The notes beneath the pieces are model-generated. The model searched no databases, was not told the DNA's origin, and worked only from the letters and a program-made list of their open reading frames with translations. Of a stretch of 64,000 nt of DNA, positions 33,201-36,200 are shown piece after piece. Positions within the stretch are counted from its first letter, which is position 1. Each line of letters starts with the position of its first letter. Location of the stretch: contig CAVNZM010000009.1 in the NCBI GenBank assembly GCA_963693365.1, positions 1,366,231 through 1,430,230 on the forward strand. Reading direction: 5' to 3'. The stretch comes from Amoebidium appalachense. Lineage: Eukaryota; Protista; Ichthyosporea. Position numbers and translations under genes: made by a program.

Positions 33201-36200
33201 GAAGGGGGGGGGGAGGGGGGGGGAGGGGAGGAGGAGGAGGTCCCAACCTAGTGATGATATCTGGAGTTTTCATTTCCAGTGGCCGGATTGCACGGGGTAG
33301 GAGTTGGGCTGCAAGTTGCACCATACTGGGCACATTGTGCTGTGGTGGTGGTGGGGGGGTGGGGGGGGGGGGTTTTGAATGCGTCAAAAAGTACGAAGTA
33401 CACAAGAACAAACGGATAACACGATGCAGAATGCAAGCCATACATAAAGAGTATGCATAATAAGCAGAGCCCATCCTCAGGGGGGGCCCACGTCATCCAC
33501 AGTACCCGAGTTTCGACCTATTCCCCTCGTTAACGAAACCCAACTCAGATACTGTTTCACTTGAACATGAGTAGGTCACCCGTCTTGATCAGAGACGAGC
33601 AGGGTTGCTTATGCAGGCAAGGGCAGTGGGAAAGGCCGGGGGTTAAAGTTGCAGCAGTAAGCAGAAGCAAGAAAAATATAGATAGGAACTCAGGAGACGG
33701 GGCTTCTAGGAAGCTCCCCCGTCGATACCTAAGTCGATACTTCCCTGGCTAACATACTACACCAGCTGAAAAGAATTAAGTCCCGAAGGCCACAGAATTC
33801 GTAATCAGAGGGGAAAATATGAGATTTGACCCACGCCGCAGGGTAGTAACACGCTTACTAGGGCGGAACTTTATCGTCTTCGAACGGAAAGCTATGCCCC
33901 CGGATGTCAGCCGGAAATATGGTATCACCCATTGCTTTGGGCTTGAAAAAAGCCAAACCGATAGTCCGAGTTATGTTACGCCGGGGGGGGGGGGGGGGGG
34001 GACAAGTCAGAAAGGCGGACACACATTTCTTCAGAGAACACGAATGGGGCATGGGGTGGTTGCTAACATCTCGAAGACACGTACGGCCAAATATGCGTGT
34101 CTGGGAAAGGGAGTGGTGTATCCATTTAATAGTGCATGTGTGTGTGTGCATGCATGTGTGCCTGTGTCTGTGAATGCATCCCTGCATTCATGTGCGTGCA
34201 TGTGCGCACGCATATCCATGCACGTGTACATGTGTGGGTACACGTGATCATGTATGCACAGTGGCTGTGTGCATACGTGGACGTGTGCACAGGTTCTTGT
34301 TGGTCACTGTGTGGTGGTGGGAAGGCATTCGCAGGGCGTGTGTGTGTGCGTATGTGTGCCGGCGGCGGCGGGGGGGGGGGGGGGGGGGGGGGGGGGGGGG
34401 GGGGGGGGGGTTGTGTTTAGTACCGGCATGAGAGAGTCCTCGTGCTGGGTGGTGAGCATATCGTAGTAGGGCGCATCGGCAAGTAGCCGCCAGTAGGAAA
34501 TGCGCCCTACGGCCTTATCTGCATCACACCAACAGGTTGGTCGGAAATACATTGAAAATATCATTTTTCAATATACATACATAAGTTATAAACACAAATG
34601 CCTACACAAGTATGTCTTTTCTTATACATTATTTGCCTAGATACGAATTTATGCACCATGAATCGTGGCCCATACGCCAAATGCAAAGGGTTGGCCATAC
34701 ATTGTAGCGGCTGTTGTCGCACCAGATCATCTCACCATTTGGGGCCTGAAAGATGATTAAACGCACAATCCATTTTTTATTTAAACTTACAACCAAAAGC
34801 CATTGTGATTGGGTAAGACATTCCGAAGCCAGCCGGATAGATATACAAGACACCTGTTGGGGGGATTGGAGGGGAGGGGGAAGGGGGGGGGGGGGGGGGG
34901 GGGGGACATCGTAAAGTGATCGTGTCTGTTGGTTAATCACGAACCCTTACAGGAAAAAAAACAGAAATGGGGAGATGCTGTAGGGACAAATCGGAGTAGG
35001 GCTTTTTTTTTTTTTTTTTTGGGTGGCGGTGGTGGTGGTGGTGGCGGAGCGGGGGGGGGGGGGGGGGGGGGGGGGGGGGGGGGGGGGACCCACTTGTTTC
35101 AGTTCTTCCACTATATCCAGCAACCAACAAAGCCTGTCGATGTGCTAAGGTTAGAACACTGTGCGCATATTATCTTAGGCATATACGGGGTGCCTTTAAT
35201 ATGAAGCGCAAAGTCATACCGTTCGCTCTTGTCAGCAAAGAATAAATACAGTATGCCCCTACGAGTATAATGTCCCAATATTAGTTACCTCGTGCCAATG
35301 TTAAAACACACGATATCATTAGCAGCAGACCAGGCTCTTGCATGACCCATTCCAATGTACCAAAATAGGCCGGTATGTGGTTTGCTTGCATATCCGAGTT
35401 ATTACCTTGCAATACTTTGCACCATATGTGTAGGTCTTTAATGGGTATTTGGCCGAGATATCTCATGGGTATAACAGCAGGAATGACATAATCTGCGTGT
35501 CACTCTGTGTGTGTGTGTGTATGTGATTTTGTCTATGTGTGTGTGTGTGTCGGGTGTGTGTGCGCAGGCGCATGTGTGCGTGAATGTGTGTGTGTGCGTG
35601 TGTATGTGTGTGTGTGTGTGTGGTATGTGCATGTGTGTCTGTGCGTGTGTGCATGTGTGCGTGCGTGTGCGCGTGCGTGAGTGTCCGTAGGCGTGCGGTG
35701 TGTGTTTGTTTGTGTACGTGTGTGTGTTATGTGTTTATGTATGTGTAAGCTAACGTGCGGGCAGGCGAGCGCAGGGAGAAAAGGGGGGAAGGGGGGGCTG
35801 AACCTTTCTCGACGAGTCATAGACCATACATGCAACCTGATCGTGGTAGGGTTTGAATGAAAAAGAGTGGCTGATGCGGTAGTTGTCTTTGGGTGGGGGG
35901 GCACTGCGGAGAGAGGGGGTGAGCATTGGTATTCACATACATGGATTATGTGTTCATTGGTTTAATGGTCGATATCATAGTGGAAAATCTAACAGTGATG
36001 GTGAATGCTGATGCTCTGTTTATTTATTTTAGAACTAGTTTGCTTCTTTGATTTGGACTTAACTCTATGCCCAAAAATATCTTTTCCGGATTTCTTTCCT
36101 TCTTTGAACCACACTTTCTCGTGCAAAAATGCTGTGTCACTATAATTAATCAATTTCAAATCTCGTTTCGTATAATTCTCCTTCCCTCCATTTCTCCTCC

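Follow-up and report, generated by a model that had tools for sequence, protein, structure and literature searches.

What kind of RNA is preserved near the 3′ end of a group of repeats in the ichthyosporean Amoebidium appalachense? The question was raised by a 64,000-nucleotide stretch of contig CAVNZM010000009.1 (assembly GCA_963693365.1, positions 1,366,231 to 1,430,230 of the forward strand), referred to below as the window, in whose own numbering all positions are given. An earlier note on this DNA had described a conserved, pseudoknotted structure on the minus-strand RNA of two repeat families, A and B, and had proposed either a reverse transcriptase (RT) recognition element or an unrecognised ribozyme. 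The computational analysis reported here finds that the folded stretch is a real RNA structure under selection. The ribozyme branch of that proposal appears to be the right one, although the class is not unknown. With a probability of roughly three in four, the structure is predicted to be a hammerhead ribozyme whose A9-G10.1 link is opened into a four-way junction and which would cleave itself after a GUU triplet, between positions 33542 and 33541.

The window is intron-rich eukaryotic DNA, rich in G/C runs and GT repeats. Self-comparison, profile search and contig mapping located ten minus-strand copies of four related repeat families between about 8.4 and 34 kb; the copies within each family have a common 3′ end followed by a C-rich run, and all ten 5′ ends differ. 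Three copies have an intact core: the family B copies B33 (33373..33982, with C-runs at both ends) and B27 (27364..27738, 5′-truncated), and the family A copy A27 (26926..27326), which lies directly downstream of B27 across a C-run. B33 and B27 are 100% identical over 375 nt (33373-33747), and B33 reaches at least 33777 and probably extends to 33982; in four of four runs, contigs reach 296-455 nt beyond 27738 and there carry the letters of 33748-33777. Family B sequence is present in 20 of the 24 listed public runs, several of which comprise just 1-3 million letters of contigs, suggesting that the family is multi-copy. No RNA run is recorded with it, which has no bearing on expression.

All stems named earlier are present on the minus strand of B33, B27 and A27. 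In B33 these are the closing stem P1 (33612-33606/33466-33460), hairpin Y (33600-33578, loop CUGAUCA), the GACCUA/UAGGUC pairing (33577-33572/33520-33515), the long stem CUCAUGU/ACGUGGG (33571-33565/33493-33487) and the upper stem (33555-33543/33511-33499), which corresponds to hammerhead stem III. Pairs were listed copy by copy, since MAFFT alignments place gaps within stem I and Y. The claim that the flanks are more diverged than the core was borne out, and with it selection on the fold: A and B agree in 143 of 179 core columns (80%) compared with 54 of 106 in the upstream 100 nt and 53 of 104 in the tail (both 51%), where shuffled upstream flanks give a mean identity of 47% and a maximum of 54%. 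The minus-strand polarity likewise holds, because the G-U pairs and the hammerhead core occur on the minus strand only. Folding energy is not its basis: z is −0.89 for the minus and −0.67 for the plus strand of B, and −2.58 and −2.99 for those of A, so that energy singles out neither strand nor region and is unremarkable for B.

The hammerhead reading follows from the order of the pieces along the chain, given here in the standard hammerhead numbering and consensus. The core letters are as in PMC10085705. The predicted split-core, non-circularly permuted hammerhead of B33 occupies 33460..33612 on the minus strand and is closed by P1. From 5′ to 3′, its first half comprises P1, the CCCU strand of a helix X, hairpin Y, GACCUA and an arm strand ending in G-U-U (33544-33542); its second half comprises GGG, a small hairpin, UAGGUC-GAAA-C, the return arm, CCC-CUGAGGA (33483-33474), the UGGG strand of X and P1. 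All hammerhead core positions and stems I-III are present in the block order S-G-C, with U16.1 at 33543, G12 at 33514 and C3 at 33480. The 5′ strand of stem II (33572..33577, G10.1 at 33577) pairs with 33520-33515 over 6 bp in B and 5 bp in A, its G10.1-C11.1 pair being followed by GAAA; this is the pairing described earlier as a pseudoknot. The pseudoknot thus exists as stem II, and a second one, stem I, was absent from the earlier list.

The arm begins with a 5′ strand at 33543..33571, whose distal helix (33571-33563) ties stems I and II together and whose stem III strand (33555-33543) ends G16.2-U16.1; stem III is closed by A15.1-U16.1 and C15.2-G16.2. The distal helix, 7-9 bp in B, adjoins both the stem I and the stem II strands and shows one two-sided change. 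By analogy with hammerheads, the predicted cleavage site (33541..33542) lies between U17 (33542) and G1.1 (33541), in an NUH triplet between stems III and I that reads GUU in B33, B27, A27 and family C. The next segment (33525..33541) contributes the stem I strand GGG (33541-33539, paired with 33483-33481) and, in the predicted fold, a small hairpin (33538-33525). The descriptor and the pair listing then place block G at 33499..33520 (the 3′ strand of stem II, G12-A13-A14-A15.1 at 33514-33511 and the 5′ strand of stem III) and block C at 33470..33483 (the stem I strand, C3-U4-G5-A6-G7-G8-A9 at 33480-33474 and U-GGG of X). CUGANGA, with C3 and G8, stands directly 3′ of stem I, which has 3-4 bp. 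The region described earlier as a final CUGA-loop hairpin is this core strand, whose 5′ neighbour forms the stem I pseudoknot. As a conserved unit that hairpin was not upheld, as family C disrupts it and retains CUGANGA.

The departure from known hammerheads lies after A9. The stem II partner of the A9 side is found upstream, and the path from A9 to G10.1 runs through X and Y with 0-1 unpaired nt. The inserted segment (33578..33604) consists of the 5′ strand of X (33604-33601, paired with 33473-33470) and hairpin Y, and would make a four-way junction of X, Y, stem II and the core; neither inserted helix changes from A to B. Pairing of stem II with sequence downstream of CUGAGGA was also tried and gave no pairs. 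The same core is intact in B27 (U17 27533, G12 27505, C3 27471) and in A27 (27198-27040; G10.1 27162, U17 27126, G12 27094, C3 27060).

A descriptor was composed of NUH, stem III of at least 4 bp, CGAAA, stem I of at least 3 bp before CUGANGA and an upstream stem II starting with G. On both strands of the 64 kb it matched three times, at exactly B33, B27 and A27. In dinucleotide shuffles it matched 2 of 20,000 for each of the A and B cores and none of 30 whole-window shuffles, a rate that is only a lower bound and limits chance loosely, because the descriptor was written after the sequence had been seen. The covariation claimed earlier stands in part. Four changes between A and B are two-sided: stem I pair 3 (G-C in B, A-U in A), stem II pair 5 (U-A in B, C-G in A), arm pair 15.8 and distal stem pair 5. 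No covariation is carried by P1, X or the paired arms of Y, which are identical in the two families. Linkers compensate for stem length, stem plus linker amounting to 6 nt on both sides in families A and B, and G10.1-C11.1, C15.2-G16.2, A15.1-U16.1 and C3/G8 are fixed between the two. The GAAA-to-CUGA distance is 34, 34, 34, 34 and 35 nt in the five copies with both.

Family C extends the comparison. It retains GUC-GAAA-C and CUGAUGA, its core strand differing from that of A and B at N7 only. Its window copy at 13399..13556 has blocks G and C (G12 13544, CUGAUGA 13509-13503), and contigs from two runs of a single sample (X16, X20) provide block S. When the window copy and the contig loose end were paired by eye, stem III reached 11 bp, with two-sided changes at two further pairs (15.3 and 15.6) and a strand that again ends GUU, followed by GGG; the loose end shows 30 letters, with the stem II 5′ strand, X and Y lying beyond. 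In the nested ensemble of A, five of six helices (P1, X, Y, the distal stem and III) have pair probabilities of 0.82-0.99 and the sixth 0.21.

No look-alike of this repeat family was present among the indexed sequences. A family-specific pattern had no match in metagenome contigs, and the split descriptor fitted none of the 27 loci (15 metagenome, 12 viral) found with relaxed patterns; inspection by eye showed a single bacterial coding sequence in all 15 metagenome loci, apparently ordinary type II hammerheads in four of the 12 viral loci and chance matches in the remainder. Those four, on viral contigs L016, L018, L024 and L026 (about 1960-2060), show GAAA, a short stem III, GUC, stem I and CUGANGA, and are unrelated to the present motif. 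The Rfam check proposed in the earlier note returned no family at the gathering threshold in the window, hammerhead models included; of 38 weak matches in 26000-35000, not one falls on the motif. Comparison by eye with the consensus features of HDV-like, twister, pistol, hatchet, hairpin, group I/II, SRP, U3 or RNase P/MRP RNAs likewise produced no fit.

Some published 3′ ends of Naiad elements show the same arrangement. From the supplement of Craig 2021 (PMC8557442), 18 Naiad 3′ ends of about 450 nt or less each were inspected by eye, with names assigned by file order. The S-G-C split layout, including X and Y, was recognised with unrelated helix sequences in three of the 18 (two octopus ends and Naiad-4_Dst), two of which are flagged 'HHR_half_core' in the supplement. 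An intact type CSG hammerhead was seen in four more (File S5: Nbra-2, Nbra-3, Hpol and Smim, the last with an extra U after A9); this type rested on just two sequences in Eckert et al. 2023 (PMC10085705). The remaining 11 parsed as neither form, and four exact motifs of the window repeat family had no match in the supplement. Naiad and most Chlamys elements have been reported without canonical hammerheads, some with 'half cores' (PMC8557442).

Several observations weigh against an active hammerhead of this form. Cleavage at U17 is a prediction only, and the shuffle rate given above bounds chance loosely. In known alignments an insertion at A9-G10.1 never exceeds 1-2 nt (PMC10085705), and no pair of a contiguous stem II forms after A9 in any of the three intact copies. 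Stem I has just 3 bp in B and C (−2.5 kcal/mol), and in B the nested ensemble favours a different fold, with pair probabilities of 0.17 for X, 0.31 for Y and 0.07 for the distal stem. The split layout was seen in 0 of 13 Chlamys and Physarum ends inspected by eye, and no RT, CxC or GIY-YIG sequence or endonuclease gene was found in the window. None of the ten window copies starts at the predicted cut, and four run through it. All ten also lie on the minus strand, seemingly in sense orientation in introns of a minus-strand host gene, as exon-like frames suggest; efficient cutting there would damage the pre-mRNA. The bias is explained in part by target supply: 66 of 89 long runs favour the orientation of the copies, and ten of ten then has a chance of about 0.05.

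The alternative that best survives this evidence is that a hammerhead-derived fold is retained chiefly for binding or packaging by the RT protein, in line with the RT-recognition idea of the earlier note, self-cutting being rare or nonexistent. The lack of copies starting at the cut site, the apparent tolerance of intact copies in sense orientation within introns and the sequence invariance of P1, X and Y between A and B all suit a binding site, as does the Penelope-like element (PLE) Poseidon of the anole, whose hammerhead cuts only with protein and whose insertion in vitro does not require the cut (PMC11167929). This alternative is nevertheless judged unlikely: although the helices turn over among the three families of the window and the three Naiad ends, every catalytic position is retained, as chemistry would lead one to expect and binding alone would not. 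Far less probable is a different structured RNA, either a new ribozyme class or the core of a short interspersed nuclear element derived from a cellular non-coding RNA, in which the hammerhead letters would be coincidental. That no Rfam family matches the motif would agree with such an origin, but the permuted order cannot be matched by Rfam models, the chance rate of the descriptor is about 1 in 10,000, and the layout recurs with other helices in Naiad ends. The proposal that the active core strand is the loop of hairpin Y, in CSG order, with the downstream CUGAGGA as a spare, can draw on the position of this loop (CUGAUCA or UUGAUCA) 8-9 nt before the stem II strand, on CUGA in the corresponding loop of one ostracod Naiad and on the intact CSG forms of four Naiad ends, but is hardly credible given that the loop has C instead of G8 and varies at position 3, that its neighbours pair poorly by eye with the post-cut strand, in contrast to the downstream CUGAGGA with its covarying stem I, and that two octopus ends have no CUGA in the loop.

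How might the preferred split hammerhead work? Its topology would be that of the closed S-G-C ring of the SGC, CSG and GCS types, opened within block C. An extra nucleotide at A9-G10.1 is already tolerated in PLE hammerheads (PMC4209133; 10.64898/2026.07.22.740005). In the four-way junction, stem II could stack on the core and X on Y beside it, so that the core geometry would be kept. In hammerheads, stem III points away from stems I and II. Here both stem III strands continue into the helix by which the tops of I and II are tied, for which a single molecule would probably need a U-turn; the same difficulty has been noted for some SGC RNAs (PMC10085705). The arm is divided into proximal and distal parts of 13+9 bp in B, 8-9+14 bp in A and, in the ostracod end, 10+5 bp with hardly any hinge. 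The preferred model is a two-fold dimer in which neighbouring copies swap strands, because a bent monomer needs fixed arm proportions and such a dimer fits any length. The dimer is given an even chance of being the active form, a bent monomer is distinctly doubtful, and protein-assisted folding alone is less likely still. PLE hammerheads are reported to act as dimers (PMC4209133; 10.64898/2026.07.22.740005) or with the help of protein (PMC11167929). Slow, dimer- or protein-dependent cleavage after GUU would occasionally trim a tandem precursor RNA, and the uncut RNA would be the main insertion template, as in the anole element (PMC11167929). Slow cleavage of this kind would explain both the copies that run through the site and the tolerance in introns.

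Among known hammerheads, the closest in layout is type SGC (HRIMA-1 and variants; Eckert et al. 2023, PMC10085705), which shares the S, G, C order and the extra helix binding stems I and II. Block C of that type is uninterrupted, whereas here it is split, with the 5′ strand of stem II upstream of block S and X and Y at A9-G10.1; in addition, all three inter-block links are present here, both stem III strands continue into the tying helix, and the motif measures about 150 nt in comparison to about 80. In the parts covered, the HRIMA motifs come from metatranscriptomes and are presented without a retroelement link, in contrast to the genomic repeats of an intron-rich eukaryote found here. Types CSG and GCS (PMC10085705) represent the same block ring opened elsewhere, and GCS likewise uses stem III to draw I and II together; both open the ring between blocks, unlike the form described here, which opens inside the core. 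Types I, II and III have the circular C-G-S order around a three-way junction and match Rfam, whereas the order here is S-G-C and no Rfam model matches. The new form is accordingly assigned neither to types I-III, whose order it fails, nor to type SGC, whose block C it splits. The published scheme treats the CUGANGA strand and stem II as inseparable, assuming the A9-G10.1 link to be unbreakable, and so arrives at six hammerhead permutations (PMC10085705). No publication on the split form was found, with the Eckert 2023 supplements and subscription papers outside the scope of the search; PMC3088659 and PMC13481778 show none in the parts covered.

The minimal type I hammerheads of canonical PLEs and non-LTR (long terminal repeat) retrozymes (Cervera and de la Pena 2014, PMC4209133; Li et al. 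2026, 10.64898/2026.07.22.740005) resemble the present motif in their placement in Penelope-type elements, close to the 3′ end or pLTR, in an extra nucleotide after A9, in a proposed dimer activity and in the processing of tandem RNA. They differ in having the C-G-S order and a tiny stem III, which here is long within a non-circular order. Several listed PLE hammerheads carry U at the cut site. Neither the type I order nor a homogeneous tandem array, a trait of non-LTR retrozymes, was found in the window.

The carriers are likely Penelope-like retroelements of Naiad/Chlamys type, an assignment that rests on termini and common fold because the window yielded neither an RT nor an endonuclease gene. 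The ten copies show the Naiad/Chlamys-like combination of 5′ truncation, a common 3′ end and (C)n microsatellite targets; 5′ truncation, (C)n insertion (in many Chlamys) and non-autonomous derivatives are described for these PLEs (PMC8557442). More specifically, the truncated 5′ ends, the flanking C-runs and the A-A-C-run termini agree with what is described for (C)n-targeting Chlamys and with three ends of such elements, and the fold matches Naiads. Naiads prefer (TA)n (PMC8557442), whereas the split fold here lies in C-run targets, and the arm spans about 22 bp here compared with 11-15 bp in Naiad ends. The 3′ tail includes a hairpin, GUAC-UUC-GUAC (33391..33401, minus strand), which is common to A, B and, as GUGC, D, stands about 20 nt before the 3′ end and is a candidate RT start or recognition site. 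Upstream of the structured region of family B, a 41-aa frame (33983-33861, minus strand) that ends in two stops had no database match. By eye, this frame has an AF-x5-MG-x2-IF spacing resembling the Chlamys/PLE linker row and could be the end of a carrier open reading frame. B27 and A27 stand head to tail across a C-run, where nesting within the run would look identical to a partial tandem; one X14 contig that links an A 5′ part to an A tail over 72 unseen letters fits either arrangement.

If the active form is indeed opened at A9-G10.1, it would be a seventh hammerhead permutation, and whole helices could be grafted at this point of the core, which would be useful for switch design. It would also answer the puzzle of Naiad and most Chlamys elements reported without canonical hammerheads, and descriptors for the split and CSG forms would make genome-wide detection possible. 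The full proposition, put forward tentatively and at clearly less than even odds, is that of a natural hammerhead outside the six-type scheme, whose chain enters via a four-way junction in the core, which is active only as a strand-swapped dimer of neighbouring copies, and which is the overlooked ribozyme of some members of the N-terminal-endonuclease Penelope clade, present here in repeats that target C-runs and have a longer arm than the published Naiads.

The other copies are shorter or worn. The family A copy at 8381..8618 is truncated at the Y/stem II border and is predicted to be dead: U16.1 has changed to G with loss of the GUU triplet, two further stem III pairs are altered, and the descriptor is not satisfied. 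Two more family A copies are truncated just 5′ of CUGAGGA (23695..23821) and within the return arm (32482..32633). In family C, the copy at 10660..10792 is truncated at CUGAUGA, and self-comparison identified a tail only at 26356..26438. A worn family D copy (13235..13362; profile E 3e-14) begins at the mutated core strand CAGAGGA and has a B-like tail end. In four of the ten copies (8618, 10792, 13362 and 23821), the 5′ truncation coincides with a helix border of the fold, either immediately before the core strand or between Y and stem II, as though the reverse transcriptase stalled or met C-run microhomology there. At 39710-39791, also on the minus strand, a weak profile match (E 0.0015) has CUGAGUU-GGG and a following hairpin resembling the family B S block; with neither GAAA nor CUGANGA, it is possibly a very worn copy. 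At 13487-13549, loose ends of X16 and X20 contigs represent a further family, with 10 differences in 63 nt and another tail and upstream part, and contigs show further tail variants at 27434-27444. Family B also has a second long hairpin upstream of the predicted ribozyme (33661-33745, minus strand; GACGGGG...CCCCGUC closing GCUUC/GAAGC), with no counterpart in A.

The surrounding DNA appears to hold three intron-rich host genes: an NBAS-like gene at about 1-41000 on the minus strand, a GatC-like gene at 43190-44000 and a MutS-family gene at 45340-63600, the latter two on the plus strand. Domain matches on single exons were obtained for MutS_V (E 1e-7) and, weakly, for GatC (E 0.017) and Nbas_N (E 0.14); beyond this weak match the name NBAS is our assumption, and the MutS-family gene is presumably MSH5-like. 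An imperfect palindrome of about 200 nt with a repeated inner segment (17680-17890) and, by eye, similar GC-rich inverted ends near 29130-29680 look like remnants of small DNA transposons or miniature inverted-repeat elements (MITEs). Short tandem arrays with units of about 15, 21, 31 and 36 nt occur within introns at 14098-14233, 15388-15882, 21048-21283 and 55299-55472.

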